From assembly GCA_051294375.1 (NCBI GenBank), contig CM119268.1, positions 13,151,770 to 13,215,769 on the forward strand: 64,000 bases of DNA, in the 5' to 3' direction. Below are positions 23,879 to 64,000 of this stretch, piece by piece. Made by a program: the position numbers and the translations under genes. Within the stretch, counting starts at the first letter, position 1. Each line of letters starts with the position of its first letter. Origin of the DNA: Paraspadella gotoi (Eukaryota > Animalia > Chaetognatha). Below the pieces are notes generated by a model. The model did no database searches. It had not been told where the DNA came from and saw nothing but the letters and a program-made list of their open reading frames with translations.

Positions 23879-23903
23879 NNNNNNNNNNNNNNNNNNNNNN
23901 NNN
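23879..23903. other. Assembly gap (25 N)
   Basis: Run of n in the sequence. Confidence 1.
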
Positions 23904-26306: not shown

Positions 26307-26439
26307 AATTGAAATATTCAATAACAGTATAGTACAAGCAGTCAAAACTATTAAGCTATTCCTTTAATATCATTACGTAAAACGAATTTTAATAGTTCTT
26401 TTTCCGTAAGTTATCAATAAAACAATTAACAGTAAACAT

Positions 26440-42600: not shown

Positions 42601-45600
42601 GGCATGGAGGCAAACATGGGTGGGACAGAGATCTTGAAGCCGCTGCAGGAGGTTTTCAAGTCGAAGCCGAAGACCTCGAGGCAGATCTTCCTGCTCACCG
42701 ACGGAGGAGTGGGTAACACGGATCAGGTGGATTTCAATTAAATTAGTCTCAAACCGTGAAATATATACAAAGTGGGTGGTTCTAATGACAGGGAGGGTGA
42801 TTTTTAATTTCAGGTGATCAAGTTGGTGGCGTCAAACGCGAAGACATCTCGTGTCTTTTCCGTCGGAATCGGGGAGGGCGCCTCGACCTCCTTGATCAAG
42901 GTGGGTCGTCTAAAGCCCGTAGGATATACTATTACAAGATAGAGGCTCACCTTACCGCCAGAACCTCTCTCTCCCCCGGGCCTTCTCTTCCCCCTCTCAA
43001 CGCCTCCTCCTCCCCTCGTCGTCCCCTCCTCTAACTATTCTTTTTATTAAAAATTCTCTCAAATAATTTTCGAGTTGCCCCATTTTAATCGCTAAACCCC
43101 GATGATCTTTAAGGGCGTGGCTAGAGCCGGCGGCGGGAGAGCCATCTTCGTCACTACTTCCGGTCAGAACCGCCTGCAGACTCAACTTTTGACTCTGCTA
43201 CGTCAGGCGACCCAGGCTTTCGTCGAGGAAGTCACCATCACGTGGTCGCGACTTCCGACAGGCGTTGAATGCGTCACTCAGGCAATTTAATTTTCGATTT
43301 CGTAGTTTCTGCCCTTGATTTGGTCTATGAATTTTTTTCTTCTTCTTCTTTTTCTCTATTTCGAGTTACTTAAACGTAAAGTGTACCGAAACACCAACAC
43401 TGAATTAAAAATGCAAAAGATAAAAGGTGAATTCACTCGTCAATGACCTTAAGAGATCAGAAGCAAATTTGATTAAATGGTGCCCGAGACTGACCCGACT
43501 TCGACATCCTCATCAACGCCTTTCCTTCTCACAGATCCCGGAGACGCCTCCACCCGTCTACAGCGGGGAACGGCTCGTCAGCTACGCCGTGTTGACCGGC
43601 GACTTTCCGAAGAAGGCAGCGGGGAACCGCTCGTCGGCCCTGGCGGTGTTGACGGGAAAGATCGGTGGGGAGACAATCCGTCACGAGTTGGTCGTCGAAT
43701 TCGCTACCGAAGACGACGACCCATCCATGACGCTTCACCGCCTCGCCGCCAAAACGCTCGTCAAACAACTGGAGACAAAGATGGAAGAAGAATTGGAAGG
43801 GAATTACAGCAGGAGATATCGCGCCCTCGACGATGACGACGACGACGCGGACGATGCCGAATCATCGCCCGAAGCGAAAGAGCGCCGGGAGCGCCGTCGT
43901 CGACAGAAACGCGAAATCGTCGCCGTCTCGACTTCGGCCAACGTCGTCTCCAGATTTACGGCCTTTGTCGGCGTCGATCCTTCGACCAAAGATCGAAACA
44001 CCGAGGAGAAGGTCAAAGTCAAAGTCCCTCGACCAGCTCGACCAGAATACTGCATGCCCGCCGGTGGGATGATGCAACGTAGCTCCATGTTGAGCAACGC
44101 AATTCAAATGCCAATGCCAATGTCAAGCATGGGGATGAAGAAGAAAAGGTAAAGCGACAATGAATTAATGAAGCAAACAATAATCAATATATCAATGAAT
44201 TAAGGGATGAATCAATCAATCCAATCATTCATTTAATCAATCTATTAATTAATCCATCCTGTCATCAATTTCAATCAACAAATCAATCCCGTCATCGAAT
44301 TCAATCGGTCATTACTTTAACAATAAAAAATCATTCGGACAATAAATTGACCGGTGACCATATTCAGTAGGTCCAAAATGTCGGCCCCCTCGCCCGTCAA
44401 AAGTGGAGGAATATTTTCTGGTTTGTTTGGCGGCCGTGGCGGAGGTGGCGGCGGCGGCGGCGAAAGCGACCGGGCAGAGTCCGCAAAAGAACGGAGGAAA
44501 GAAAGAGAAATGGTGAGCGACATCTGTCTCTCCGGATTCGATTGCTGTGAGGTTGAGGGATCATCCGCCGCCGCCGCCTCCCCGATCGGCGACGCCCTCC
44601 TTCGCCTCATCGATCTCCAGCGTTTCGGCGGATCCTGGCCGGCGTCGTCGTCGCTGTACGAGGCCGTCGGCGCCGGTGACGCCGCGCGGGCGTTTTGCGG
44701 CACCGGCTCAGACGCGGAGCGACGCGCGACGGCGCTGGCGATCGCGTGGCTCAGGACGAAGATGTCCCATCGACGAGACGAGTGGAGGATGATCGAAGAG
44801 AAAGCGCTGGAGTGGCTGAAGGGTGGAGCGAAGGGGGATGGAGAAGTGGAGGAATTGGTTGAGCAGGCGCGGAAGGAGTTGGGATGAAGATTGCGCGGCT
44901 GACGACCAGTTAAATGTTTTTTTTTGGTGTCGATGGTGTAATGACGGAGATGGCTTATTACTAGTCGTAGATTAGTTTTTCGCATTAGCTCTGTTTTATT
45001 GGTGTTTTATTCTTTTATTCTTTTATTCTCTGTCTGTATTATTTAAATATTTTCGTCCCTTTTTACAAAAAGAAAAAAAAATTAAATACCTTTTTTGTCT
45101 AAACGTATTTATAATAAACTGACCTCTACCAGCTACATTCAACGCTACATATTTCAAAAACATAGAAACGAAATACAAGATAGATATTTAGAAACTGAGA
45201 AGACTAAACCCTAGAGGGCGAGATGCCTCACCAAGCTAGACATTACAGGCAACCTCAAACTAGACTCTATAATCTTTTTTTTTATCGCATCCTTACTTGG
45301 TCGATATCCCTGGTAAAATGCGAACATGATGGCGTCGGGATGTAGAGAATGACGAAGACCAAGACTGTGGCCAATCTCGTGGACGAGGACTTGCAAGAGG
45401 TTCACCCCCATGGGAGAGTCGATTGTCCACAGTTCTGCAAAACGAGAATTGAGGGTTGATTAGTTTCGCATAAATCTATTTTCTTGACGACGTCAATTCT
45501 TAACCGAAAATTATACGAGAAAAAAAATGTGGATGTTGTACCTTCAAGATCGAGAGAAGTTGTGCATTGATATTTTGCTTCGAATGCACGCACGAGTTTT

Positions 45601-48034
45601 ATTCTTCCCGAAAATTCGGAAGGGAAATTCGATCATGGAAACTAAAAACCTTTATTTGTTTATTCATTATCTCGTCACGACATTCCCTTTCAATTTGTTT
45701 TGAATAAAAAAATAAAAGATAAAAAAAAAATTCCGTTCTTGCTTAATTTGATCGATTTACCCTCTAAAAAACACTTCGCAAAAAATTATATGCCGAACTG
45801 AAAAAGATATTCTTTAAAAGTACAGATCTTAGCTCCAACATCACTCAGATGGAAATCCTTTTAAACGGCGTCACGTCTCGACGCGTGCACGCCAGAAAAT
45901 TTTTTTGCGGCAGGGTCATCTCGTCGCCCGCCGAGTCAAAGTCTCCGGACGCCACCTGCGACCCATCGAGCGGGCGTCAGTGTCCCACCTGCGCCACGGT
46001 CCCGCCCTACCCCGTCGTCTGCCCTCGTAAGCACCTCGTCTTCGAGCTCCGAGACTCTTCGACGTCGGCGACGACGCCGGTTCGAACTTGCGATGGATGC
46101 GGCGACGTGGATCCTCGCTTCGGCTGCGACGCCGACGATTTCCGGTTGTGCGAAAAATGTTTTCATCGTCGGCGCCGGAAAATCTTTCGGCGTCTTAAAA
46201 AGATGGAACGAGAGGCGGAAGAAATTCCGGACAAGGGTGCGAAGGAGAAAGGCGCCGGGAAAAAAGAAGTCGTTGACTCCTTATCCGTCATGAACGAGCC
46301 AGAAAGCGATGATGGGGGACAATGTCTCAACATCCAAAAAAACCAGACGGAAAAAGATAAACAAAGATCTTGTCTAGACGAGATAGTGAACCAATGCTGT
46401 GAAGGACGAAACGAACTGAGATACGACAAATTCGACTACAGTGGGAAAGACGAAGATAATTTTAAAGAAAATTCTTGCCTAGAATCGGCCGAGGATAAAA
46501 AACAATACAAAAGGAATGAGGATTCTTTCAACAAGGACGACGAATATAAAGACGCGCTCGTTAATAACGGACCCGGAGACAATCCCGACTATAACGGTTT
46601 GGACGTTCAGGAGAAAGTGGATCGTTTTGGTACCGAAGAAAATCGCAGCGCGGAAAACGAAAGTAATTGTTCAAAGAATGACTGTTCGCAATTCAACTCT
46701 CATCCGGTTAACTGCCAGAGTGCGGAGGATCATTTGCAATATCACGACGTCAATAGCGATAAAGCTCGTAACTTCGTCAATAGGAGATTCGATCATGACA
46801 GCTCTGACAACCTCGCCGGTCATGGTCAGCAAAAAGAACTTTTTCTCTCGGAAGAAAACTACGATGACGACGAAAACAACGACGACAACTTCGATGACAT
46901 CGAATCGTCAAAGTTTTGTGGCTTATTCAAAGAAAGCGACGCGCCGGACGACGACCAGTTTATGAATTCCAACTTGGAAATCCTCAATCGAAACCAATTT
47001 GATGAGATAAATCAAATGAACGATATCAATCAAATCGAGCGTTGTGATCCTGTAGAGGTATTGAACGATTCCAAAGGACAACACCAAACAGCTGGACAAC
47101 CAAATATTATCTCAAGTGAGATCGAGAACTCTCTAGAAAATCATCGACCCAGAAGCGAAGCGGCTCGTCGACTCGACTCGTTTGATGGAAACGCGCATGC
47201 GCGCGGAAATGGCGAAGAGATAGAGAACGACGACGACGACGACGTGGGCGACGCGTTGGGGGTTATGCAGAAAGCCATTCGTGACTTAACCGACTCGCTG
47301 GAGGTCGTCACGAGGATCGCCGAAACTTCCGGCGGCTTCGGCGAAGACTGCGTCAACAGTCGAAACAACCTCGTCGATGCCTCCGTCTCCACGCGCGACG
47401 ACGACGACGACGAACGACAACGACGCCTTGTTGAGGAAAACCACGAACTCCTCGACCGGATCGACCGACTAGAGATCCTCAAAGACTTTCTCAAGAGGGA
47501 GTCGCGCGCGCGGAAGGAGCGCGTCCAACAGCTCGACGCCGACGCCGCAAATCTCCGCCGCAACAAGGCGTTGCTGGAAGCAGAGTTGGTGGCCGGGAGG
47601 AGGGAGGCCTGGCGCGTGGGGCGAAAGGCCAGGAGAAAAGAGGAAGAAAACGAGTGGCTGCGTGACAAAGAGGCGAGGTTGGTTTCCGGGAGTGCTTTGT
47701 ATGTGTGGATTCATCTGTGAGGCACAAACGAGAGCATAACTGAATTCGAATGATTAGTGAATTGTAAAAGTAAAAAAAAAAATATATATTAAATAAATAG
47801 GCTAAATTTTACTTTCGCCGACCGCGGTTTTGGCGGCTTTTGAAAAACCATTGAAAAATACTTATTTTAAAAAAAAGATTTAAAAAAATATTACCTAATT
47901 ACCCTAACCCTTAATCCTTTTAACCCTAACCCTAATCTACCCCTAAACCACCCTTAACCCTAGCCCTTCCCTTACCCCTCCCTAACCTCGGTCAGCGAAA
48001 GTAAAAGTAACCAAATAAATAAATAAATAAAAAA

Positions 48035-48073
<39 letters not shown>

Positions 48074-48205
48074 AAATAATAAATAAATAAAAATAATAGA
48101 TAAATAAATATAAATAAATAAATAAATAAAAATAATAAATAAATAAAAAAAATAAATAAATAAATTAAAAAAATAAATAAACAAATAAATAAATAAATAA
48201 ACAAA

Positions 48206-48260
<55 letters not shown>

Positions 48261-49256
48261 AAATAATTAAATAAAAAAATAAATAAATACCCAACGATCC
48301 TCAAGGTTGGAGAACGACCTGGACGTGGTCAGGGAAGAGGCTCGTCGAGCGATGCTTCGAGCGGCGCGACTCGAAGAGGAGTCGGAGGCGACGAAGGTCG
48401 AGCTGAGGAGAATGACGAGGAGAGAGAGCGAGACGAGGAGACGCGTTGAGACCATGGAGGAAGGGAGGAGAAAGAGAGAGGAGGAGATGAAAGAAGAGAG
48501 AAGGAATTGGGAGAGGGAGATGGAGAAGGCGAGGAGGAGATTCCGCGAGCTCGAGGACGAGAACGACGAGCTAAGGGTTCGTAGAAAGGCTGGGGGGGGA
48601 GTGGAAAGAATGTGAGGGGGAGTGGAAAGGTTGGAGGGGATAGTGAAAAAATTGTGGGGGGGAGTGTAAAGGTTGGAGAGGATAGTGGAAAGAATGGGTA
48701 TCGGTGTTTAGATGAGACGTGAGGGACCACGATAGAGTTGGGGCTCGGAGGCAGAGAAGACAAAGGTTAGCGGTTGAAATAATAATAAAAAAAAAGTTTC
48801 ATAAGCATGTTAGGTATAAGGTATAGAACAAATATTGTCCAAATATTGTCCAAATATTGTCCATCCCTCCAATTAATCAGGACGGAAAGACCCGGTGCTG
48901 GGAGGAGCGGCTCTGCGCGGTCTGCCTTGAGCGGGAGAAAGATACGGTCTTTCTGGACTGCGGTCACGTGGGCTGCGGAGTCTGCGCTGCGCTGCTCGAC
49001 TCCTGCCACATTTGTCGCCGAACGATCGGGAAGAGGATGAGAATTTTCTTCAGCTAGAAGCATCGTCCGAGTTACGACGACGGCTCTCTGTCTCTCTATC
49101 TCTCTATCACACCAACAAACCTCACCGTCATCATCCAAGTGAATGTCGCCGCCGATAAGGTTGAGCGGATTCGGATAGAAGGCGTGGGCCAAGACGCCGC
49201 CCCTGCCGCGGAATGGTTTACAAGCTTCATGATGACTTCCGCCCTTGAAGACGATC
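39262..49256 (-). CDS. Matrix metalloproteinase (peptidase M10A) catalytic-domain exons, partial gene
   Basis: Exon 49126-49256 (PFRGRGGVLAHAFYP..GGDIHLDDD), exon 45297-45434 (ELWT..NLLQVLVHEIGHSLGLRHS..DAIMFAFY) and exon from 39392 (KFQLHDDDIREIQSLY, reading to TGA at 39262-39264 unless spliced at 39267) join through phase-1 GT-AG introns. HExxHxxGxxH and Met-turn are intact; 5' exons not seen. Confidence 0.9.
39918..44887 (+). CDS. VWA5A: von Willebrand factor A domain-containing 5A-like protein (VIT + vWA)
   Basis: Ten exons: 39918-39982, 40172-40279, 40665-40943, 41125-41284, 41872-42135, 42419-42726, 42814-42900, 43114-43281, 43535-44148, 44370-44887. VIT motifs EATFTFPLD, IQEKETAKETYDAAV, GNIPPG; MIDAS FIIDRSGSM; LLTDG; HRLAAK; SRFTAFVGVD; LQRFGGSW. 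Confidence 0.9.
45849..49057 (+). CDS. Putative E3 ubiquitin ligase: ZZ-like zinc finger, acidic linker, coiled coil, C-terminal C3HC4 RING
   Basis: In-phase exons 45849-47677, 48306-48576, 48881-49057. CDGC..FGCDADDFRLCEKCF near the N-terminus; CAVCLEREKDTVFLDCGHVGCGVCAALLDSCHICR at the C-terminus (IAP/Mind-bomb-type RING). Confidence 0.8.
47800..48012. mobile_element. Mutator-like MITE with internal degenerate (CCCTAA)n
   Basis: ~30-bp TIRs ggctaaattttactttcgccgaccgcggtt / aacctcggtcagcgaaagtaaaagtaacc; 9-bp AAATAAATA on both flanks. Confidence 0.65.
48013..48289. repeat. (AAAT)n microsatellite
   Basis: Direct observation. Confidence 0.95.
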
Positions 49257-49372
49257 CTGTGAATAAAAATTGATTTTTTAAAATTAATTCTGTGAAATTA
49301 AAATAATTAATTCCTGTTGGTGCAATCTGATATTCAAGTATACAAAAATAGTCAATATTTCTCATGCGGTAA

Positions 49373-49445
49373 GCCCGGTTAGCTCAGTCGGTAGAGCACG
49401 GGACTCTTAATCCCGGGGTCGTGGGTTCGAGCCCCACATTGGGCG
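49373..49445 (+). tRNA. tRNA-Lys(CTT)
   Basis: GCCCGGTTAGCTCAGTCGG...gggact-CTT-aatccc...GTTCGA; 73 nt. Confidence 0.95.
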
Positions 49446-49615
49446 GACTCACTGTTTTGGTAAACTAAGAATGTTTTATATAATTACTGGTAATTGATGG
49501 TAAGAGATCGATTAATTTAAAATTTTGTATGTTATTTTAAAGAATGAAAACTAAATTGAAATAACTTTTGAAACCTGTTAGTTTAACTATAATTATAAAA
49601 GAAATGAAAAAAACA

Positions 49616-49687
49616 TTCCCATGCGGGGAATCGAACCCCGGCCGCGGCGGTGAGAGCGCCGAATCCTAACCACTAGACCACATGGGA
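49616..49687 (-). tRNA. tRNA-Glu(CTC)
   Basis: TCCCATGTGGTCTAGTGG...cggcgct-CTC-accgccg; 72 nt. Confidence 0.95.
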
Positions 49688-49807
49688 AGACGTTGTTTAC
49701 GAATTTGTTTATATTATTTAACATTATTCATTATGACAATAAGACATCATTATTCAATATTCATATTCTTGTTTAAATTCCTGTTGAAATCCACCAATAC
49801 GTTCTCT

Positions 49808-49846
49808 GCAGAAATAGCTCTGCTGGGAGAGCGTTAGACTGAAAAT
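49808..49846 (+). pseudogene. Truncated tRNA-Phe(GAA), 5' half
   Basis: gcagaaatagctctgctgggagagcgttagact-GAA resembles the eukaryotic Phe 5' half; a HINE-like fragment follows instead of the 3' half. Confidence 0.8.
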
Positions 49847-50030
49847 GATTAAAATATTTTTGTAATGTAATTTGATGTTCTAAAATGTGACTGACCGACG
49901 AAACTTTAAGGGTCGACTGACAAACTGACGTGAGTGAATTATAAGCACGGGACTTCTGAAGCAGATCCGACTAAAAACATTCCCAAACAAAATAAAAAAG
50001 AAATAAGTACTTTTAAACAAAAGATAACTA

Positions 50031-50112
50031 TGGCAGCGGTGGGATTCGAACCCACGCCTCCGAAGAGACTGGTGCCTTAAACCAGCGCCTTAGACCACTC
50101 GGCCACGCTACC
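50031..50112 (-). tRNA. tRNA-Leu(AAG)
   Basis: GGTAGCGTGGCCGAGTGG...ctggttt-AAG-gcaccag, long variable arm; 82 nt. Confidence 0.95.
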
Positions 50113-51064
50113 AGATCTACGTAATGCAGTATGTGTAATATTGTGTAAGGAAAAATACAAATTGGAGCAAAGAATGCCGGATCTGCTAACCGCTAAATAG
50201 AGGTGCAAGCAGCTTCTCGGATGAAAAGTTAATTTTCGTATATTCTTTCGGTTGTGGGAATTATGGTGGTTTTCTTAGTGGTTGTGGTATTTGTTTTGGT
50301 GATTATTTAATTTTTATAATGGATATGGGGAAGCTGGTTAAGAAAATTAATGGAGACATACACTAAGTCATAAACATTATAATTATTACAATTTCCTCCA
50401 CATTGTTATGGTCGTTGAGGTCATTGTATAGTTTTGGTGGTAGTTGGATTGTGGTGATTATTTTATCTATTATTAGCATTTAAATTTAATATGAATGGGA
50501 AAAAAAGCACAATTAAACAGAGAAAACGTGCTTTTTGTTTTTTCCATGACTGAAAACTCATTTCCAATTGAACGATTCCATCAAAACTTGTTTTCCAGCT
50601 CAATCACACACTTCTTTACCCTCTCGAGTAATTGGCGTACGGACGGAGGGATAGATGCATAAACGGACGGACATCGATATTTTTGCCTAATTTATCAAAT
50701 TTGATGTTCTAAGTGAATGACCGACAACATTGTGGGGGTGGACCAAGGGACCGACTTATTTTAAGTAGAGAAAAATCATCAATGAAAATGCATTAAACGA
50801 AATGAATAAAATGAATTTCGGTCGACTAATAAAGAAGTTTCCTACATATAAAAGAAGAATCTATATCTATCTAAGTTTAGAAAGATATAAATATTATGAC
50901 GCGATTAAAGTTAATCAAAGTAGTTACTCTCAAATTTAATTAAAAAAAAGAAGAAAAATAGGAGGTTTGTAACGTGGTAATACACATAGATGTAAAGATG
51001 AGTGGTGCGCTCTCTCCAGTATTCTTTTTACCGACACTCGGACCGACTCATGGCCAAGCAGCCA

Positions 51065-51136
51065 GGTTCCATGGTGTAACGGTTAGCACCCAGGACTCTG
51101 AATCCTGTAATCCGAGTTCGAATCTCGGTGGAACCT
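51065..51136 (+). tRNA. tRNA-Gln(CTG)
   Basis: GGTTCCATGGTGTAACGG...caggact-CTG-aatcctg. Confidence 0.95.
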
Positions 51137-51304
51137 CTTTTATTAAGGCCGAGTTAGAATTGATGATCGCAAGATTTTTACATACGTCGGCGAGAATTAT
51201 AGTATGTAAACATCTGGCCTGAATGATTAAAACGTTTAATCTCATAATGGAGTGCAAAGCCGTACAAGAAAAAAAAAATAGTTTACATAAGTGTAAAAAA
51301 TAAC

Positions 51305-51377
51305 CGACCTTGCCAGGATTCGAACCTGGAATCTTCTGATCCGTAGTCAGACGCGTTATCCATTGCGCCACAAGGCC
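51305..51377 (-). tRNA. tRNA-Arg(ACG)
   Basis: GGCCTTGTGGCGCAATGG...tctgact-ACG-gatcaga. Confidence 0.95.
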
Positions 51378-51901
51378 CTGCTATAAAATTGATAACACAT
51401 AACATAGGCTATCCTTGGACCTCAAGTTTTAAACTTTGAAAACCTTGGTCTTTTTTATTATTAAAAAATAACTTCTTTCAATATGGTACTAAGCTTTTCA
51501 ATAAGGTGCTTTGCTTACGCTATCTTTCGGACACGCTCACTCGCTCAGTGCGCCACGTTGTAGCCCTCTCTGGGCGGTAGGAACTTTCCAATTTCATGTT
51601 ATACATACTATTTTAAAACTAGAATAATGCGAGAATTGACGTAATAATTTGATTTTTCGATGAGGAATGAAAAGAGGGGAGAGAGGAAAGAGGGACCGAG
51701 GAGATAGGAAAAAAAAAAGTATAGGGAAGAGATAAACAAGAGGAAGATGAAGGGAAAGGAGAAGATTCCAATAATACATAACTTTTCAAGAGGAATTTAT
51801 ATTAACTGTAAGTTTAATTACAAAAAAGTTTTAACTAATGAACCCAAAAAGACGTCTTATTTTTATAACTAGTCCAAATGACTCCTTAACATGCACAGTG
51901 C

Positions 51902-51974
51902 GCCCGGTTAGCTCAGTCGGTAGAGCATCAGACTTTTAATCTGAGGGTCAAGGGTTCAAGTCCCTTATTGGGCG
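51902..51974 (+). tRNA. tRNA-Lys(TTT)
   Basis: GCCCGGTTAGCTCAG...tcagact-TTT-aatctga. Confidence 0.95.
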
Positions 51975-52418
51975 ATTGTATTTTTATGTCGCTCGTTAAC
52001 GAAAAGCTACTGGTATATGCGCTATACTGATTAATATCGTTCTAAAATATTTTTCTGTTATGTGGTTTAAAGTATAATTTCTAATTTATGCTCATAATGC
52101 TTTTATTACACTCCTTAGGCTTAAATTTATAACTTGTACGTCTTTGAATTTCGTCAACGTTTAACCTGGAACGAGTGTATATATATACATAATATTTAAA
52201 GTCAGAAAAATAAAGAAAATGAAAGATTGACTTAACAAGAATAATAATCCAAGATCATTAATAATTGTTATTTCAAATAGCTACGTTGAACTAAATGAAT
52301 AAATAAAAATATTATTCAAATATAGTTCCTTTGTGGGATTTACAAGTGTATTTTTAATATCTTTTTTAGCTACATTAACAAACAAGTGTATGAAATCTAG
52401 ATCTGTCAGTAAAAAAAT

Positions 52419-52508
52419 TGCCCCGGGTGAGGATCGAACTCACGACCTTCAGATTACCCAAGAGTATTCATTATGAGACTGACGCGCTGCCTACTGCGCT
52501 ACCGAGGC
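52419..52508 (-). tRNA. Elongator tRNA-Met(CAT) with a 17-nt intron (52455-52471)
   Basis: GCCTCGGTAGCGCAGTAGG...tcagtct-CAT-a[atgaatactcttgggta]atctga; 73+17 nt. Confidence 0.9.
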
Positions 52509-52576
52509 TACGAAGATTCACAAAAGTGTTTCATTTTAAAAACCTCTCATTACGAGTCACATTGTTGTTAAAAGGA

Positions 52577-52650
52577 AGGCACCACCGAGATTCGAACTCG
52601 GGATCTCCTGTTTACTAGACAGGCGCTTTAACCAACTAAGCCATGGCGCC
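52577..52650 (-). tRNA. tRNA-Thr(AGT)
   Basis: GGCGCCATGGCTTAGTTGG...cctgtct-AGT-aaacagg. Confidence 0.95.
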
Positions 52651-52961
52651 ATATACAGTTAAAATCTAACTTTAAACGATAAAAAATGGACGGATTTGAC
52701 TTTTGATATGTATCAAAATATAAAAAGAACCTTGAAAAAGTAAAAAACTTATTCCATTTTCTTTTACTATTTTCATTTTTAAATCTAATTTTTAGGGGTC
52801 ATACAAATTTTAAATTATTAGCTCTCATTAATGAACTTGCACTCGTGGCCTAACAGATGAGCCAAGGATTTGGGGAACTAGTACTGCAGTCCATTTAAAA
52901 AAAAATTGGCTTTTCATAACAGTTATCAAGTAAATGCCCTTTGGGTCTGGGAAGACTATAG

Positions 52962-53032
52962 GCATCGGTGGTTCAGTGGTAGAATGCTCGCCTGCCACGC
53001 GGGCGGCCCGGGTTCGATTCCCGGCCGATGCA
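52962..53032 (+). tRNA. tRNA-Gly(GCC)
   Basis: GCATCGGTGGTTCAGTGG...ctcgcct-GCC-acgcggg; T-run terminator follows. Confidence 0.95.
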
Positions 53033-53199
53033 GGTAATTTTTTTTAAATTTAATACAATATGATAACATCTTTTTAAATGACGCGACATAACAGAATTTT
53101 AACTTTCATACTTTCATACTATGTGCATATTAACTACCAACAGAATAAAAAGAAAAGCAAGTTGAGTACTTTTAGTAGAATTACGGACCAATTAACAAT

Positions 53200-53281
53200 G
53201 ACGAGGTGGCCGAGTGGTTAAGGCGTTGGACTGCTAATCCAATGTGCTCTGCACGCGTGGGTTCGAATCCCATCCTCGTCG
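53200..53281 (+). tRNA. tRNA-Ser(GCT)
   Basis: GACGAGGTGGCCGAGTGG...ttggact-GCT-aatccaa; 82 nt. Confidence 0.95.
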
Positions 53282-53342
53282 AAATAAATTTTTTTTTATA
53301 GGCTTTAAACGTGACTTTGACAGTCTAACTCTAAGTAACAGA

Positions 53343-53768
53343 CAGTGGAGTGATGAAAAGACTGAGCCATGGAACAATGTTTTTTGCAAACTGAAAAACT
53401 TTTGTAACATATGTTTCATGATATTTTTAGGTTAAAGCTGCGAAAAATGACCAAAACATTTTATCATATAATAGTTTCTACTACAGAGTTGAAAGTTTTG
53501 ATGCTGAAGACCATGAAATTTTTATTAACATATTTTATATTTTTGATCTAACTTTTTATGAAGAATCTGAACCTTTAATAAAAAATTTTTTTAAAAATTT
53601 ATAAATTTGTTATTTTATAAGGATATTACAATAATGTTACTGATACTGTTCCCCAAACAATATTGGCAAAATATTTTTGATACTCCTTAGCTTAATCATA
53701 CTATCTCACGGCTAAATATCCTTGTTTGTTCACTCAAATAAAAGTTATGTTCCCCAGTGCTCCACTTT
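53343..53768. mobile_element. MITE (gtggag...ctccac termini)
   Basis: Shorter relative of 58380-59007 (gtggagtgatgaaaaga...gtgctccact). Confidence 0.55.
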
Positions 53769-53902
53769 AATAGCCAATTTCATGACAGGATATTAAATTT
53801 TTATGCTTTTAATTCTATACATCGTGAAAGGACGTCATCTTATCTGTGAGAAGCCACTAAAGTATCACTAATACTATCAGGGAATCGTCTTTTTCCACAA
53901 AA

Positions 53903-53974
53903 TGCCGTGACCAGGATTCGAACCTGGGTTGTCGCGGCCACAACGCGAAGTACTAACCACTATACTATCACGGC
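53903..53974 (-). tRNA. tRNA-His(GTG)
   Basis: GCCGTGATAGTATAGTGG...tcgcgtt-GTG-gccgcga. Confidence 0.95.
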
Positions 53975-54634
53975 TATGAAGATAGGGATAGATATATATA
54001 TATTCTAGTAATGACCATTTACCTAATGTTGTTGGCACACTAACTGTACAGACTAACCACGCTGTCAGCAATGTCTACTTAAAGTGTACATAATAATTTT
54101 TTAAAGATTTTGATAAAAGGGAGTAAAAGATTTGAAGAAAATTTTTTTCATTATCATACAATGATTTTGCTGTGGTTGGATTTAAAAAAAACTTCAAAAT
54201 CGAAAAGGCAGTTGCATTGCAAAATAATATTTTCCCAGTAATTATCCCTATCAGAAGAGACAATTCTAATCTTTCGACTTATCGTATAACAGTAACGAAT
54301 CATGCATAACTATAAAAAAAAAAATTGAAGAAGAATTAAAAATGACTATAAATTCAATTAGAAACTTAGCTTAGGAGAATGTACCTAAGACGAAGTGACA
54401 ATAACCGAGACATTCGCCAATTTAATTTTTTCTAACAACTGAAAATAGATTATAATATGTTGAGCAATAGAATTTAAATTATTTCTTTGTTTTTCTTAGT
54501 ATTAATTGAAAACGGCTAATAGAAAGTGTCTGTAGCAAAATAAGTCAATTTTATATATATGGCGATAAATATTAGAATTATTGGAATGCAGAACGAATTA
54601 CTTATACAATTCCGAAAAAAATGAAGAAAATTTA

Positions 54635-54707
54635 AGGTACTGCCCGGTTTCGAACCGGGGACCTTCTGCGTGTTAGGCAGATGTGATAACCACTACACCA
54701 CAGCACC
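54635..54707 (-). tRNA. tRNA-Val(AAC)
   Basis: GGTGCTGTGGTGTAGTGG...tctgcct-AAC-acgcaga. Confidence 0.93.
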
Positions 54708-55423
54708 AGTAGTGTCTTTAATTTATGCGAAATTATGTCAATTCGTCTATGGGAAGCCTAAGATGTAAGTTTAAATGATAGTTTAAATGACAGTTATAAT
54801 GATAATAAGTATTTAAATAATTTAGGTATTAAACCTACTACTTCTCCTTCTACTTGTTGTACATAATGGCTAATATACTCTGTTGATCGTAGTAAAGTGG
54901 TTGTCGCTGATAGGACGCACAGGAGAGTACCCATTACTAAGTTGATAACACTTTTAAGTAGGGGCCCAAAACAATTACATCTAAAAAAAAAAACGGCAAA
55001 ATTTCTTATCCTTAACCTTAATAGTTAATACAATGTAAAAATCTCTTCTTTAAGGTATGAATTAAGGATTCGGGTAGAATTATTAATTATTTAATAGATA
55101 CCAATCGAACCTATCAAGCAAATTAGGATATAACCAGCTACAACCTCTCATGCAAAACCTCTCATGTAAAACGAAAATGATTAAGAGAGCCGAAAGACAG
55201 AAAAACTGAGAAAACTCAATAACACAACAAATCAGTGTCAATAGGATTTGACAGAAAATATAATAAAGGGAAACTCATGCCTACCTGAAAGAACATCCTT
55301 CTTTGAGACAGTAGAGACGAGAGAAGAATGTCGAGATAGAGAGAGAGAGAGTGTGTCACCAAAAATTGACAATTCTTTAAATATTTTTTGAAAACAACTG
55401 AGCAACATAAAGTATTAGTTAAA

Positions 55424-56658
55424 CAAGTTTGAGCAAACAATTGATCGATTAATTAATTAATTAACTAATTTTAATATTTAATAATTAATTATAAATTTAT
55501 ATACAGCTTATCATCATCGATGTCCTTAAAATAAAGTAAATGTGACTTATATTTTTTTCATTTAAACTCATTTTCACTGGCACAATTCCGTCAAAACTTT
55601 ATATCTCGCTTCTTCACAAACTTTCCTTCCCGCTCACAAAATTTCATTTCAATCTATTATGGGTTAAAATAAGTAAAAAGAGTCAAGTAAATGTGACTCA
55701 TATTTTTTTCATTTAAACTCATTTCCACTCGTACCGAAACTTTACATCAAGCTTCGTCACACATTTCCCTACCCACACACAAAATTTGAACTCAATCTAT
55801 CCATCCAATTATGATTAATTAGAGTATTTATTGGTTAAAATAAATAAAAAGATTTTAGTAGATGCCACTTATGTTTTTTCCATTTAAACTCATATCCACT
55901 CACACGATTCCGTCGAAACTTTATATCAAGCTTCATCACACATGTTCCTACCCATACACAAAATTTCATTCCGATCCAACCAGCCAATCACGAGTTATTG
56001 GGGCTTTTTGCTAAGGTGGGACGGATGGACGGATTGATTGACTGATTAATTAATTAATGATTAATTAATTGACTAATTGATTAATTAACTGATTAATTAT
56101 TTGATTTATTAATACATCCTGCATATACATTTAATATAAAAGGAAAAAAAATCATAATCAATTAGTGAAACAGGTTTTTTTTTCCATTTAAACTCATTTC
56201 CACTCAAGCGATTCCATCGAAACTTGGTTTCCTGTTCAATCACACACTTTCCTACTCACATACAAAATTCCAGGTCAATCGCCCCATCCACTCATGAGCA
56301 ATTGGTGTTCAAATAGTGAATTATATTTTTTTTGGGGTTTTTTTCCATTTAAACTCATTTCCACTCGGACGATTCCATCGAAACTTTATATCCAGCTCAA
56401 TCACACACTTCCCTACCCACACACAAAATTTCATTCAAATCCATCCATCCAATCACGAGTAATTGGTGTTTTTTGCTAAGGTGGGACGGACGGACGGAGA
56501 CGGACGGACGGACGGACATCATTTTTTTTGCATAATTTATCATAATTCGATGTTCTGACATGATATAAGTTAGTGCCCGACAATATTGAGGGGGCGGACC
56601 GACGGACCGACAAAGTGATTTAGAGTCGGGATCTGCTGATAAGCAGATCCGACTAAAA
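55424..56658 (+). mobile_element. Two adjacent DINE-1/HINE-like copies
   Basis: Repeated internal modules (tttaaactcatttccact...cacaaaattt), (GGAC)n tracts and 3' hairpin ggatctgc-tgataa-gcagatcc. Confidence 0.7.
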
Positions 56659-56743
56659 ATCACACGTTGATTATAAAAGAGGGCCCATTTTTTCCAGTCT
56701 TTGGCTATCTTTCATTAGTAAAGTGAAACACAGAAGAAGTCAT

Positions 56744-56817
56744 GGCCGGTTAGCTCAGCTGGTTAGAGCGTGGTGCTAATAACGCCAAGGTCGCGGGTTC
56801 GATCCCCACACTGGCCA
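56744..56817 (+). tRNA. tRNA-Ile(AAT)
   Basis: GGCCGGTTAGCTCAGCTGG...tggtgct-AAT-aacgcca; one T-stem mismatch. Confidence 0.9.
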
Positions 56818-57094
56818 AATCTTTTGTGAAAACATGATTTCTTTTCCAGTAGCTTTATCTTGGGGTAGACTGACTGTGTAAGGTGGTAAGAAATTTGGAT
56901 TAAGCACCCGTTCAGACAAAAATTTAAACGTTTAAAAAAAATTTTAAGAGACAAAGAAATTTTAATATTAGTCTATAGCCCACATATTAATTTTTAATTA
57001 TTAATTTATTTGGTTACAAAGTAGCAGAGTAATTCATTTGCATTAAACATTATTAACATTATTAACATTATTAAACATTATTCACAATTATTTG

Positions 57095-57135
57095 GACATG
57101 TTTCGGTCCTTGATTCGGACCTTCGTCAGCGCATT
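57095..57135 (-). ncRNA. Minimal hammerhead ribozyme core (Penelope-like)
   Basis: Minus strand: tgcg-CTGACGA-a-ggtcc-gaatcaa-ggacc-GAAAC-at-GTC. Intact CUGANGA/GAAA core and 5-bp stem II; weak stem I. Confidence 0.65.
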
Positions 57136-57680
57136 TGACAAATTTGGGATTGTGAAAAGTTTAGAAATATTGAGAGAGAGAGAGTGAGAGAGAGAAAGAT
57201 CAGATTCAGATAGCTTGCAAAAAGTTGTCTAAACAAAGTATAATTCTTTTCTCGATATTTTGATCATAAGTGAGTGAAAAATTTGAAAAAACTATTAATA
57301 ATCATCATTGTTATTATATTTTGATAATTTTATTTTAACCACGAAAACTTAATAATTTTTAAAAGTTGTAATTATTTTTTTTATTTAACTTTTTATGCTC
57401 TATCAGAATCCATCAAAAAAGTTACGATTGATTAAAAAAAAATTTATCATTATATATTGGTTGTACCAATTTCATAGTAATATTATAATTTTGATAGCAA
57501 CAATATAAGCATTAAAACCGAACTTTTTTAAAAAAATATTTTTTTGCCTGAAAATAGACTTCAAGACTAAAGTTTTGAACCCCCACCACTATTGAATTTA
57601 ATTTCATACGTTAACCTTAGTGATGATGATCGAATAATAATAATCGAATTTAAGCCGACTCACACCTCCAAATGCACATC

Positions 57681-57753
57681 GGGGGATTAGCTCAAATGGT
57701 AGAGCGCTCGCTTAGCATGCGAGAGGTACCGGGATCGATACCCGGATCCTCCA
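57681..57753 (+). tRNA. tRNA-Ala(AGC)
   Basis: GGGGGATTAGCTCAAATGG...ctcgctt-AGC-atgcgag; G3:U70 present. Confidence 0.95.
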
Positions 57754-58004
57754 ACTATGGCTATCTCTTTTTAAGCCTGATTTTTAATACAAATTTAAGG
57801 TGAAACGAAAATCCGAAGCTCTTACACCGTATTTTTTATTGACTTAATCTTATGTTCATGAACCCATGACATTGAACAAAATGCTTTCCACGGTAAATCA
57901 TATATTTGCAAAATATTAACTAAAACAGGATTTACAGTAATTTTTCGGACAGTTCCAACAACTAATACCTAACTTAATAGACTCATTCATCTCTCAATTA
58001 TCAG

Positions 58005-58076
58005 TCCTCGGTAGTATAGTGGTGAGTATCCTCGCCTGTCACGCGAGAGACCGGGGTTCGATTCCCCGCCGGGGAG
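58005..58076 (+). tRNA. tRNA-Asp(GTC)
   Basis: TCCTCGGTAGTATAGTGG...ctcgcct-GTC-acgcgag; T-run follows. Confidence 0.95.
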
Positions 58077-58229
58077 GTTTTTTTTGTAACTTCAATAAAG
58101 TTTTTTCTCTCATTATTGAAGAAATTACAAATCGACATATAAAGTGAATTATATTATTAAAGTCGAAAAGATCAATTGATTGTTTCTATAGGTTTATGTT
58201 TAACAAATTTAAGAGCAGTAAAAAAAGAC

Positions 58230-58301
58230 TGAGCCCGACGTGATTCGAACACGCAACCTTCTGATCTGGAGTCAGACGCGCTACCGTTGCGCCACAGGCC
58301 C
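58230..58301 (-). tRNA. tRNA-Trp(CCA)
   Basis: GGGCCTGTGGCGCAACGG...tctgact-CCA-gatcaga...GTCGGGCTCA. Confidence 0.95.
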
Positions 58302-58333
58302 AAACATGCTTATGAACAAATCTAAACTAGTTT

Positions 58334-60170
58334 TTAGTCGGATCTGCTTATCAGCAGATTACGACTCTATAAAGTATAATAGGGTGGAGTGATGAAAAGA
58401 TTGAGTGATTGAACATTATTTTTTTGCTGCCTATGGACATATAATTAATGAATTTTAAATCCTTTTAAAAAAAATTTTAGCATAACAGTATAGCAAATTC
58501 AATTATTTATGTAGTAATATCCTTATAAAATCGTCAAATTTCAAAATAATTTTTTTATATTTTTAAGAACTGATTTGGATTCGCTGTAAAAAACTAAGAA
58601 ACTTTTATAAAATATGTTATATGATATTTTAATGTTTAGATGACAAAAAATGACTAAAAAGTTTTAACATATATAAGTTTTTATTACAGAGAATAAAAAA
58701 GTGAGGAATTTTCACCTTTTTTCTTATTTTAAACATTGAAGATGACAGAATTTTTGATAACATGTTTTATATTTTTGATTCAACTTTTAAGAAGAATCTG
58801 AATCTTTAATAAAAGTTTTATAAAACTTATTTTTAAAATTTACTATTTTATAAGGATATTACTACAAATATATTATATTTTACTATTCTGTTCCCGAGAT
58901 AATATAAACAAAATATTTTTTGTACTAGTTACTCATACTATCTCACATCTAAATATCATTGTTCGATCATTCAAATAATTTTTTTGTTCTTGAGTGCTCC
59001 ACTCTACTATATAATTCACTTTGTTGGTCCGACGGTCCACCCCCTCAATCTTATCGGGCATTAATTTAAATCATGTCAGAACATCGGATTATGATAAATA
59101 ATGCAAAAAAAAAAGATGTCCGTCCGTCTGTCTGTCTGTCCGTCCCCCCCTTATGGTTGGATTGAAATGAAATTTTGTGTGTGGGTAGGAAAGTGTGTGA
59201 TTGAGCTAGATATAAAGTTTCAATGGAATCGTACGAGTGGAAATGAGTTTAAATGGAAAAAACATAAGTCATATCTTTTAACTAATTTTAACCCACAATT
59301 ACACTAACTAATAATAATTGGATGGATAGATTAAAATAAAATTTTGTGTGTGGGTGGGAAAGTGTGTGACGAACCTGGTTATAAAGTTTCGATGGAATGG
59401 TGCGAGTGGAAATTAGTTTAAATGGAAAAAAAATATGTCACATTTACTTGAATCTTTTTACTTATTTTTTAACCCATAATTACTTAAATAATTCATAATT
59501 GGATGGAAAGAATGAGATAAAATTTTGTGTGTGGATAGGAAAGTGTGTGATTGAGCAGAATATAGTTTTGATGGAATCGCGGAGTGGAAAAAAACTAAAG
59601 TCAAGTTGACTTGAAATTTTATTCTTTATGGTTACTCATAAATGTTTTAATTAGTTAATTAATTAAAAAAATGATGCAAGTTAAAAAAATGATATAAGTT
59701 GAAAAAATGATGCAAGTTGAAAAAATGATGCAAGTTGAAAAAATAATGCAAGTTGAAAAAATAATGCAAGTTGAAAAAATGATGCAAGTTAAAAAAATGA
59801 TGATAGTTGAAAAAATGGTGTGAGTTAAAAAAAAGATGCCAGTTGAAAAAAAGTGCGAATTGAAAAAATGATGCAAATTGAAAAGTGCGAATTGAAAAAA
59901 TGGGGCAAGTTAAAAAAAAGAGGCCTGTTGAAAAAATGTTTCAAGTTGAAAAAAAAAGTTGAAAAAATAATAATAATTTTAAAAAATATTTGTTTGTACG
60001 TAAAAATTAATCCCTTGCAAACTATTTACATGTATATGCGCAGCCATTGATTTAGTATGGTACAATCTGTTATGATCACAAATTGAAAGAATTAACGTCA
60101 TTTATCATCTGATTAGCTGATTTCCGCTTAATTATCGTAGGCAGAGCCGACATTGTTTGCTCAAACTTGT
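58334..60170 (-). mobile_element. Long DINE-1/HINE-like copy interrupted by a MITE (58380-59007), with an 18-bp tandem array (59668-59960)
   Basis: 3' hairpin at 58336-58360, 5' motif gcagagccgacattgtttgctcaaactt near 60141-60168, array of gaaaaaatgatgcaagtt; the inner MITE has tagggtggag...ctccactcta ends. Confidence 0.65.
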
Positions 60171-60237
60171 TCAATATCAATTATCATATGTTACACGATT
60201 TTCTCATTTTATTCTGATCAACATATTCACTTTATAT

Positions 60238-60309
60238 GGCTCGTTGGTCTAGGGGTATGATTCTCGCTTAGGGTGCGAGAGGTCCCGGGTTCAAATCCCG
60301 GACGAGCCC
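60238..60309 (+). tRNA. tRNA-Pro(AGG)
   Basis: GGCTCGTTGGTCTAGGGG...ctcgctt-AGG-gtgcgag. Confidence 0.95.
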
Positions 60310-60956
60310 TCGAATTTTTTTCAAGCTGACGAAAGAATGTCCGTCACCAGCTTCTCGTAGGAGAATAGGTGACATTATTTTTGAAAGGGGAAAAGCAGGT
60401 GACGTCGCAGAGAGGGCCAAATGTGAAATAGATAAGGATGAAAGACAAAAAAATATCGGAGGGCGTGTCAAGAGTGACTCCCATTAACCTAATCGAGAAC
60501 GAGATATAAATCGACATACGTAAGAGAAGATTTAATGTGAACTCGACATGGAGACCCGCGACGAACGAGGAAGTCGGCGCGACCGCCTCCACGAATGCTT
60601 CGGTATCAAGCAGTGGGTCTGGCTCACGAAGGTCGACGACCTCGGATTCGACGTTTGCGAAGCACAGGAAGGAAATGCTAAGGACGATGTTCGACCATGG
60701 TTTTAAACTTAACTCTGTCGAAAATTAAGTTAAGTTAAATTAAAATTAAATTAAAATTAATAAAAAAAAAATTAACATAAAAATTCTTAAACAATAATCG
60801 ACTTGGTTATTTATGATAGTTAATATTGATAAAAAAAAAAGACAGAGATAACTGAAGTCAAATATTTATATACATTTCGGAATGATAAGTTTAAAATTAG
60901 TGTATTTTTCCTTTCTTTTCGAATAAATAAATAAAAATATCTACTCTGACAACAGT

Positions 60957-61028
60957 TCCCATGTGGTCTAGTGGTTAGGATTCGGCGCTCTCACCGCCGC
61001 GGCCGGGGTTCGATTCCCCGCATGGGAA
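60957..61028 (+). tRNA. tRNA-Glu(CTC), second copy
   Basis: Same sequence as 49616-49687, opposite orientation. Confidence 0.95.
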
Positions 61029-61228
61029 TTCTTTTATATTTTTTGATATTCATGCCAAATTAATTTTCTTTTTTTTTAATCATCCGAATTTAAATATGAA
61101 GTTAATAGTTAAAAACAAAATTTAAACTCTCCTTTTATCATTTCACGTGTCGTATATTCTATTCTAATCTCTGCAACCTTACAATCAATAGGTAAAATAT
61201 AATTAAAACATTTTAACATACTCCATTA

Positions 61229-63790
61229 CAGGCTTCCCTAGACACCCGAAAAAGAAAATAGAAATAAACCCATTTCTGAAAACACAAAAAATGAAAAATA
61301 TAATGTTATTTACTACATCGTAGTGAAGTCAAAAAATTCTGATCCAAGCCAAGTTTTTTTTTTAATTGAATTTTTAAAGTTTTGTTATAATTTTTCATAC
61401 AAAATAATGAGAAACTAATCAACGAACTTTGTCATTCTTTGTCAAATTATTACTTTCTTTATACTCAATCATTATCTACTGAAAGAGAGCTTTTTTAATT
61501 TGAACTCACTTTCATGAGCCTACGATAATTCGTTCTTAAAGTTAATATTTTAAAAATAACTCAATTTATTACAAAAATAGTAACCATTTTGTAATTACTA
61601 CATGAAAGATTTAATCAATTTCTTATTTAATAAAAAACTATAGAAATGTAACATACAATTGCTTAGCTTCAAAATTAACCTAATTTTAAATTTTTCTTCA
61701 ACCATAACTACTATGAAATGCTATGTATAAAATTGTTAAATTTTATATATATATTTTTAAATAATTTAACATCAAGCAAGAGCATATTAGTAATATTATA
61801 CATCCAAAAGAATCCTCATTTTATGATCTTTCTTTTGAGTCTAATCTCAGTTCTCTGTGATAATTCGTTTTTGAGAGTATTGACAAAACAATTCCACAAA
61901 ATGCTTAAAAAGTAAAAAAAATATTCAAAAATATTTAATATTTGAGTCAATTTTTGATATATTTTATCATAAAAGGTTTTAATTGATAGGAAATATGCCA
62001 ATAATAAATTAAATTTCATATTTAAAGATTTTTTAATCAAACATGACTTGTGATCGCCTTTTTCTCCAAATAAATACAAATAAAATTGTGATTTGTCTAT
62101 TTTTGCTAATATTTTAAGCTTTTAATATTAGAATTCTTACTGAAAAATGATATAATAAAAAAATATGGCTATTTCTGCATTCTAACGAGCTATCATACTT
62201 TAAAATATCATAAAAAATAAGTATTTATGAAGTCAAAATGAAAAAAAAATGTCAGTACCAAAATCGATTTTTAGTAATTTCTTAGAGAGAGAGAGAGAGA
62301 GAGAAGAGAGAGAGAGAAAGAGAGAGAGAAAGGGAGAGAGAGAGAAGGGGGAGGGAGATAAAAAGATAGAAAGCCTTATTATATATTATTATATTATATT
62401 ACTATATTATATTATATTATACTATATTATATTATTATATTATATTACTAAATTATATTATACTATAGTATATTAATTACTATATTATATTATTACTTAT
62501 AATTATCACAAGTAGGAGAGTAAAAAAACGGTTAATATTAAAAATTTTGTCTTTTATATTATATAGTTATAATATAATATATAGTAATATAATATAATAA
62601 TATAATATAGTATAATATAATATAGTAATATAAATATAATAATATAATAATAAGGCTTTCTATCTTTATCTCCCTCCCCCTCTCTCTCTCTCCCTTTCTC
62701 TCTCTTCTTTCTCTCTCTCTCTCTCTCTCTCTCCTCCTCTCTCTCTCTCTAAGAAATTACTAAAAATCGATTTCGGTACTGACATTTTTTCATTTTTGAC
62801 TTCATAATACTTATTTTTTTATGATATTTTAAAGTATGATAGCTCGTTAGAATCAGAAATAGCCATTATTTATTATATCATTTTTCAGTAAGAATTCTAA
62901 TATTAAAAGCTTAAAATATTAGCAAAAAATAGACAAACATCCAATTTATTTGTATATATTTGGAGAAAAAAGGCGATCACAAGTCATGTTTGATTTAAAA
63001 AATCTTTAAATATGAAATTTAATTTATTATTGCATATTTTCCTATCAATTAAAACCTTTTATTAGAAAAATCTATCGAAAATTGACTCAAATATTAATAT
63101 TAATGATTATTTTTTTACTTTTTAAGCATTTTGTGGAATTGTTTTTGTCAATATCTCAAAAACGAATTATCACAGAGAACTGAGATTAGACTCAAAAGAT
63201 CATCATAAAATGAGGATTCTTTTGGATGTAACAATATTACATAATTATGCTCTTGCTTGATGTTAAATTATTTAAAAATATATATATAAAATTTAACAAT
63301 TTATACATAGCATTTCATAGTAGTTATTGGTTAAGAAAAATTTAAAATTAGGTTAATTTTGAAGCTAAGCAATTGTATGTTACATTTCTATAGTTTTTTA
63401 TTAAATAAGAATTATGATAAGTTTTTCATGTAGTAATTACAAAATGGTTACTATTTTTGTAATAATATGAGTTATTTTCAATAATAACTTGAGAACGAAT
63501 AATCGTAGGCTTATGAAAGGGAGTTCAAATTAAAGCTCTCTTTCAGTAGATAATGATTGATATAAAGAAAGTAAAATTTGACAAAGAATGACAAAGTTGT
63601 TGATTAGTTTCTCATTATTTTGTATGAAAAATTATAACAAAACTTTAAAATTCAATTAAAAAAAAACTTGCTTGGATCAGAAATTTTTTGACTTCACTAC
63701 GATGTAGTAAAGACATTATATTTTTCATTTTTTTGTGTTCAGAAATGGGTTATTTCTATTTTCTTTTTCGCGGGTGTCTAGGGAACCGTG
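61229..63790. mobile_element. ~2.56-kb foldback element (near-complete palindrome)
   Basis: Arms ~61229-62500 and ~62565-63790 are reverse complements, including GA and TA microsatellites. Termini caggcttccctagacaccc / gggtgtctagggaaccgtg; no ORF. Confidence 0.8.
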
Positions 63791-63806
63791 CATATGCGAA
63801 TAGCAA

Positions 63807-63812
63807 GTCTCT

Positions 63813-63853
<41 letters not shown>

Positions 63854-63880
63854 GTGGTGGTTCGAGCCCACCCGAGGACG
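63807..63880 (+). tRNA. tRNA-Asn(GTT)
   Basis: GTCTCTGTGGCGCAATCGG...ttcggct-GTT-aaccgaa; imperfect acceptor stem (cgaggac). Confidence 0.85.
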
Positions 63881-64000
63881 CATTAATAAATAATTTTCTA
63901 CTTTCCTGACGAATAATTTTTTGTAATAAGTTTTGAGCAAACGAAGTGCCGGATCTGCCCACGATCATTAGCGGTAAGTTGCTGATTAATTTAATAATTA

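Follow-up and report, generated by a model that had tools for sequence, protein, structure and literature searches.

A near non-redundant tRNA gene cluster in the chaetognath Paraspadella gotoi, most likely within a matrix metalloprotease intron

Tandem tRNA units are found in Xenopus and at human 1q23, and a megabase-scale, highly redundant region of human chromosome 6 holds tRNA genes for most anticodons and most amino acids. As far as the available portions of the sources go, tandem tRNA arrays or heteroclusters are also present in Entamoeba, zebrafish, and Nematostella (PMC2888827), Arabidopsis has a Ser-Tyr-Tyr tandem array (PMC13578239), and tRNA genes inside protein-coding genes have been recorded (PMC13578239). 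In the same portions, animal tRNA clusters are described as mostly small, with mostly parallel pairs, fast turnover, and poor synteny (PMC2888827), and a 2026 review names the question of whether tRNA clusters are adaptive hubs or by-products as unresolved (PMC13578239). The locus reported here is located in a 64,000-nt stretch of the genome of Paraspadella gotoi (Chaetognatha; assembly GCA_051294375.1, contig CM119268.1, positions 13,151,770 to 13,215,769 of the forward strand), which is hereafter referred to as the window. The window contains a dense cluster of intact tRNA genes with nearly one anticodon per amino acid, which is most likely located inside an intron of a matrix metalloprotease (MMP) gene. 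Loci from metagenomes that probably share its lineage carry a more compact tRNA gene cassette of fixed order.

Gene content and redundancy of the cluster

All 19 tRNA genes of the window are located within 49373–63881, for which ARAGORN and Rfam agree (Rfam scores of 53.9–72.2 bits), and neither program found a tRNA gene in 1–49372. The intact set represents 17 amino acids and 18 anticodons, with 11 genes on the + strand and eight on the - strand; the order runs from Lys(CTT) to Ser(GCT) and continues from His(GTG) to Asn(GTT) as listed in Table 1. The gene at 52419–52508 was miscalled as Tyr or Thr by ARAGORN, and its sequence and the Rfam match identify it as elongator Met. A first-pass annotation, made from the sequence alone, had described a dense cluster of mixed orientation in 14.5 kb, and this description is confirmed by both programs. 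Its count of 18 of the 20 amino acids is reached if a broken Phe gene is included, but the intact genes give 17. Similarly, its statement that Glu(CTC) is the sole repeat is correct for anticodons, although Lys is also present twice with two different anticodons. The Phe gene had been recognized as a fragment, which agrees with the 5' 33 nt that are present and with the failure to find a 3' half within the window. As had also been noted, Cys and Tyr tRNAs are missing up to the window end, and the initiator Met tRNA is likewise not found.

A run of four or more T residues starts at most 15 nt downstream in 19 of the 19 genes, compared with 27% of random spacer positions that have such a run within 20 nt. 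Based on these terminators, the 19 genes look like working polymerase III tRNA genes. Minimum-energy folding did not reliably recover the cloverleaves and was not used.

Tests of whether this isotype diversity may arise by chance were post hoc, and their nulls are assumed gene pools rather than a genome-wide tRNA count. For at least 18 amino acids in 20 draws, P is 2.4e-4 when draws are uniform over amino acids, 1.5e-5 when they are uniform over anticodons or weighted by amino-acid use, and 7.3e-4 for one gene per anticodon drawn without replacement. With 2, 3, 5, and 10 copies per amino acid, the values are 0.014, 0.003, 0.0009, and 0.0004, respectively. For at least 17 amino acids in 19 draws, P ranges from 9e-5 to 3.2e-3 across nulls. 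The random-draw comparison that the first-pass annotation had suggested is therefore in agreement with an unusually diverse set (P of 1.5e-5 to 7e-4, and 0.014 under the kindest null). In addition, all nine amino acids for which there is a choice use the A34/G34 isoacceptor (P of 4e-5 if isoacceptors are picked evenly).

The intact set reads 37 of the 61 codons, which account for 62.5% of 2,103 codons sampled from six open reading frames (ORFs) of the window. The set is not self-sufficient, with readers for 24 of 61 codons and the initiator Met lacking within the window. The cluster is 14,509 bp in length, of which tRNA genes occupy 1,449 bp and repeats occupy 6,201 bp (43%); spacers have a median length of 444 bp and 16 of the 19 are below 1 kb. 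Because 43% of the cluster consists of repeats and only 37 of 61 codons are read, dosage balance is unsupported at this locus. The absent initiator Met, the lost Phe, and the doubled Glu likewise lend no support to the dosage-balanced cassette envisaged by the first-pass annotation.

A compact cassette in metagenome loci

When metagenomes were scanned with the Met gene and its intron as the query, at least 131 stretches were found, stored as at least 125 loci. Among the 125 listed loci, 88 have one isotype and 18 have two, and 11 (L009, L014, L016, L017, L053, L068, L072, L077, L108, L113, and L114) share one dense cassette. Gene order and strand in this cassette are identical wherever the 11 loci overlap. 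Locus L017 (1–4340) has 25 tRNA genes in 4,340 bp and a 5S rRNA gene at its edge; it is the only one of the nine cassette loci scanned that has a 5S rRNA gene beside the cassette. When the orders of L017 and L009 are joined, the cassette has 32 genes with 29 anticodons for 17 amino acids in about 5.2 kb (summed coordinates), and tRNAs for Trp, Asn, and Cys were not seen in this joined cassette. The 11 loci belong to six types, and spacers compared between types are at or near the level of shuffled sequences (53% identity versus 52% shuffled over 16 spacers; at most 62% versus 54%).

On one contig of 7,204 bp, the 657-bp stretch of L113 recurs letter for letter and in unchanged orientation as L114 at a distance of 5,443 bp, a period to which the joined span of about 5.2 kb is close. 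The name of this contig gives a coverage of 78, compared with 2.0 for L104 from the same assembly (raw values). In these likely relatives, the cassette is probably a tandem unit of about 5.4 kb. The suggestion of the first-pass annotation that the genes are copied as a unit finds support in these likely relatives through L113 and L114, but not at the window locus. Separately, L063 (1–2998) has identical 123-bp ends and a unit of 2,875 bp in which all eight tRNA genes are different; its Met intron is of another type, and genes similar to those of L063 are present in L093 and L094. This locus may represent a second lineage in which a tandem unit lacks redundancy.

Several features link the window to the cassette. 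The Met intron of the window starts with ATGAA, a start that among the 125 listed loci is confined to the 11 cassette loci, all of which have it. Nine of the 15 anticodons that can be compared (Gly without its intron) have a window gene identical to a cassette gene, and in the others the nearest cassette gene differs at no more than four positions. In comparison, same-anticodon genes of other listed loci have 2–16 differences from the window genes, with three larger counts set aside because the genes are mislabelled or degenerate. The window has the design, and probably also the lineage, in common with the cassette, yet it is no copy of it because the gene order, the spacers, the 5S rRNA gene, and the Gly intron all differ.

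Individual tRNA genes show further variation. Both window copies of Glu(CTC) are more similar to the cassette Glu(TTC) (98.6%) than to the cassette Glu(CTC) (95.8%), a hint of homogenization or of a switched anticodon. An intron of 13–36 nt in elongator tRNA-Met is found in the window and in many listed loci with the same gene type. The loss of this Met intron in animals is offered as one possibility in the available part of a review (PMC13578239). The Met-intron pattern had no hits in viral contigs and was found among prokaryote genomes in one short contig (L126, 804–857). This contig, of 1,007 bp and low coverage in a bacterial assembly, has an animal-type intron-bearing Met tRNA and is probably contamination. 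Moreover, L052 (921–1023) and L026 (1114–1216) have an intron-containing tRNA-Lys(CTT) that ARAGORN miscalled as Thr, in a cluster of five different tRNAs.

The metalloprotease gene and neighboring features

The MMP exons at 49126–49256 and about 45295–45438 match consecutive parts of PF00413. The former bounds the cluster, and its start at a splice acceptor, proposed by the first-pass annotation, is corroborated by the PF00413 match, the AG dinucleotide, and a splice in probable RNA. None of the listed runs that contain this sequence is registered as RNA; the RNA evidence is derived from X9, a sequencing run guessed to be RNA, a guess that two splice-like features support. Three DNA runs gave no contig over 48310–49360, a negative that may be false and is given no weight here. 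One of the two contigs from X9 is identical to the window over 48880–49256, and precisely at the acceptor at 49256 it departs into a loose end of 41 letters. Thirty letters of this loose end give an in-frame, stop-free hand translation that resembles the stretch before the counterpart of the 49126–49256 exon in P0125, which supports the loose end as a putative preceding matrixin exon. The loose-end letters have no match in the window at up to three mismatches. Moreover, none of the 142 minus-strand frames of at least 28 aa in 49257–64000 hit PF00413, and tblastn with 65 of 150 metalloprotease hits (at least 240 aa) gave no hit cluster better than E 0.16 in that interval. These results are consistent with the earlier view that the window has no upstream MMP exon. 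The splice at the 49126–49256 exon is observed, and the upstream exon would be placed outside the window. Because this exon is seen in probable RNA and lies outside the window, and provided that the assembly is collinear, the whole cluster is most likely inside one MMP intron, as the first-pass annotation had supposed, and this intron would be 14.7 kb or longer. On the + strand, a transcript over 48556–49256 is spliced from 48575 to 48880 (GT..AG) and then appears to run antisense through the MMP exon; the X9 contig over this interval may combine two overlapping transcripts in a chimera.

The host intron is probably incidental for the cluster and merely provides space, because nested genes are likewise present in the two MMP introns that follow (Table 1). 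For the vWA5A-like gene, the best matches reach 781–786 summed bits, compared with at most 485 for named single-copy bivalve proteins, and a fish protein of 1,656 aa that contains two copies reaches a sum of 663 bits. The proteins encoded in the window are of animal type by homology.

Other features of the window include further copies of the dispersed repeat family, at about 50.5 and 58.3–59.6 kb inside the cluster and at about 16.3 and 36.8 kb outside it. The region 60330–60720 is GC-rich, and the frames open on its two strands are in register; the one on the - strand is signal-peptide-like, and the one on the + strand follows a TATA-like motif. In the island at 60548–60703, the - strand frames have no Pfam match and the + frame has weak Atlas leads at best. 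This island was considered as an MMP signal-peptide exon and rejected, since such an exon would require the one joined to 49256 to be located between the island and the 49126–49256 exon, where it is absent. Outside the cluster, a palindrome of about 12 kb (18390–30771) contains a duplicated 908-aa ORF with a trypsin-like domain and results from a recent inverted duplication or else from a fold-back in the assembly. Minus-strand ORFs that are rich in cysteine and have no Pfam match are located at 33000–34700 and 35900–38600. Finally, 149 further frames of the window gave no useful Pfam hit.

Table 1. Annotated features of the window, in order of position.
Feature	Position	Strand	Evidence or remark
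Probable further MMP exon, end of catalytic domain	39300–39400 (ends approximate)	-	55 tblastn hits, best E 1.8e-4; translation
vWA5A-like gene (VIT and VWA domains), nested in MMP intron	40170–44887	+	Pfam, homology
Next MMP exon, zinc-binding motif	45295–45438 (ends approximate)	-	PF00413 positions 93–143
650-aa ORF and probable coiled-coil exon, nested in next MMP intron	45768–48615	+	No Pfam family at cutoff
MMP exon bounding the cluster	49126–49256	-	PF00413 positions 53–95; AG acceptor
tRNA-Lys(CTT)	49373–49445	+	ARAGORN, Rfam
tRNA-Glu(CTC), copy 1	49616–49687	-	ARAGORN, Rfam; identical to copy 2
Broken tRNA-Phe(GAA), 5' 33 nt alone	49811–49843	+	94% to Phe gene of L017
tRNA-Leu(AAG)	50031–50112	-	ARAGORN, Rfam
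tRNA-Gln(CTG)	51065–51136	+	ARAGORN, Rfam
tRNA-Arg(ACG)	51305–51377	-	ARAGORN, Rfam
tRNA-Lys(TTT)	51902–51974	+	ARAGORN, Rfam
Elongator tRNA-Met(CAT), 17-nt intron	52419–52508	-	Rfam; intron signature common to 11 loci
tRNA-Thr(AGT)	52577–52650	-	ARAGORN, Rfam
tRNA-Gly(GCC), intronless	52962–53032	+	ARAGORN, Rfam
tRNA-Ser(GCT)	53200–53281	+	ARAGORN, Rfam
tRNA-His(GTG)	53903–53974	-	ARAGORN, Rfam
tRNA-Val(AAC)	54635–54707	-	ARAGORN, Rfam
Copy of dispersed repeat family inside cluster	55526–56659		Repeat comparison
tRNA-Ile(AAT)	56744–56817	+	ARAGORN, Rfam
tRNA-Ala(AGC)	57681–57753	+	ARAGORN, Rfam
tRNA-Asp(GTC)	58005–58076	+	ARAGORN, Rfam
tRNA-Trp(CCA)	58230–58301	-	ARAGORN, Rfam
tRNA-Pro(AGG)	60238–60309	+	ARAGORN, Rfam
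GC-rich coding-like island in cluster	60548–60703		Codon scores equal on both strands
tRNA-Glu(CTC), copy 2	60957–61028	+	ARAGORN, Rfam
Foldback (inverted repeat, 2.55 kb, arms 90.7% alike)	61234–63785		Between Glu copy 2 and Asn
tRNA-Asn(GTT)	63807–63880	+	ARAGORN, Rfam 61.9 bits; one acceptor-stem mismatch by eye

Origin of the cluster and comparison with known systems

The explanation slightly favored here is that this lineage keeps its tRNA genes together in a block with almost no redundancy, which is duplicated in its entirety, and that the window holds a rearranged descendant of such a block in an MMP intron. Each gene would be transcribed separately by polymerase III. The unit of duplication in the lineage would be the block rather than the single gene, and isotypes would therefore stay near one-to-one. 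The copy in the window would since have been reshuffled and stretched by mobile repeats, with the loss of Phe and the gain of a second Glu, and would now occupy a roomy MMP intron. Selection for a balanced tRNA supply is hypothesized to hold the block together. A more specific possibility, put forward tentatively, is that the lineage has most of its tRNA genes, together with the 5S rRNA gene, in a cassette of fixed order (about 5.4 kb) that undergoes rDNA-like tandem amplification, and that the window holds a rearranged descendant of it, stretched by transposons, in the protease intron. If true, such a tandem cassette would make tRNA dosage rise and fall in step.

Several observations weigh against descent from a block or cassette. 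A search for a cluster of the same order, recommended by the first-pass annotation, found that the cassette order is unlike that of the window, with no adjacency in common between the full orders; when only the shared genes are considered, there are two signed adjacencies (P of 0.11, range 0.11–1). No spacer similarity was found between the window and the cassette, of which the tRNAs alone align. Rfam found no 5S rRNA gene in the window, and no repeated gene unit was seen within the 14.5-kb cluster. The tRNA-Gly(GCC) genes of cassette loci (L017 2304–2388, L009 965–1055, L016 1617–1705, and L072 1408–1498) have an intron of 14–18 nt, which the window gene lacks. Furthermore, tRNA conservation is too strong to gauge the depth of the kinship between the window and the cassette, the tandem evidence in the likely relatives consists of two 657-bp pieces of one short-read contig, and a skewed copy number would by itself yield the A34/G34 preference.

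A small genomic tRNA repertoire, with a large part of it at this locus and with neither block copying nor selected balance, may also account for the observed diversity. The flanks and spacers of the locus are unique; a pool with each amino acid present twice yields 18 amino acids among 20 genes at the P of 0.014 given above, and a smaller pool does so more often. This explanation is considered unlikely, as even a small repertoire still needs genes to be gathered in one place and the likely relatives have an ordered, apparently tandem cassette; in addition, many other tRNA loci must exist because the set lacks readers for so many codons. The cluster may instead be an ordinary animal island, built up gene by gene through insertions into open polymerase III chromatin, with its diversity a matter of luck. 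Grouped metazoan tRNA genes are usually large islands of mixed families and mixed strands in the available part of the same review (PMC13578239), and the dissimilar window order and the post hoc nature of the chance tests fit this explanation as well. However, only one of the 18 anticodons is repeated, P is at most 3e-3 in every null with at least three copies per amino acid, and the non-redundant design recurs in loci that share the tRNA signature of the window, so that an origin of this kind appears quite improbable.

An assembly artifact may be involved in part, such as a collapsed tandem array or a misjoin beside the MMP exon. The window does have an error-prone appearance in the palindrome at about 18.4–30.8 kb, where an alignment of the arms over 5.5 kb shows 99.1% identity and 35 gap openings, and where one arm has frameshifts. 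Nevertheless, the spacers and genes of the cluster differ from each other, the spacer repeats recur at 16.3 and 36.8 kb, the probable-RNA contig shows an upstream exon outside the window, and an artifact would not produce the non-redundancy itself. There is accordingly little reason to expect that an artifact explains the locus.

Among known systems, tRNA gene islands agree with the window in every feature tested. Those of metazoans and Chlamydomonas, as covered in the available portions of two papers (PMC13578239; PMC13437025), share with the window the many isotype families, the mixed orientation, and the lack of a repeated motif. The threshold used there is at least five tRNA genes within 5 kb, and the window has 11 genes within 5 kb. 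Published islands are described in these portions as spatially extended, without mention of a one-per-amino-acid make-up or a fixed order, whereas the present cluster has 17 amino acids in 14.5 kb and the likely relatives have 32 genes in about 5.2 kb (PMC13578239; PMC13437025). Nested intronic genes (PMC8527503, available part) are similar in that genes lie within a host intron, here apparently in three successive MMP introns, but differ in that the cargo here would comprise 19 polymerase III genes in one intron.

Tandem heteroclusters, as far as the accessible descriptions extend, consist of a multi-gene unit copied in tandem, which is also suggested for L113/L114 and L063. They differ in having few isotypes and mostly parallel genes, whereas the unit of the likely relatives has 29 anticodons on both strands and a 5S rRNA gene beside L017. 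The few-isotype feature is absent here, as the window and the joined cassette each represent 17 amino acids. The human chromosome 6 region exceeds the window locus in size by a factor of hundreds, and its high redundancy contrasts with the near lack of redundancy here.

No near one-per-amino-acid animal cluster and no 5S-linked whole-set cassette was found in the open full-text literature, a search that did not extend to a metazoan 5S-linkage survey and most subscription papers. The term "tRNA" is absent from the main text of PMC12460157 (and from three of its supplements), PMC2481426, PMC8527503, and PMC8008620. Term searches of PMC12704002 and of bioRxiv 10.1101/2025.01.31.635879, the latter excluding its supplements, gave nothing on such a cluster or cassette. 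If the cassette is amplified in tandem, it would represent a simple way to scale translation supply that was not found in the animal literature searched. A non-redundant set that is kept together, with its order kept across diverged spacers in some loci and reshuffled in the window, makes the question of hubs versus by-products testable. Taken on its own, the window holds an island of unusually low redundancy that is most likely intronic; the fixed-order cassette of its likely relatives is the more surprising of the two.

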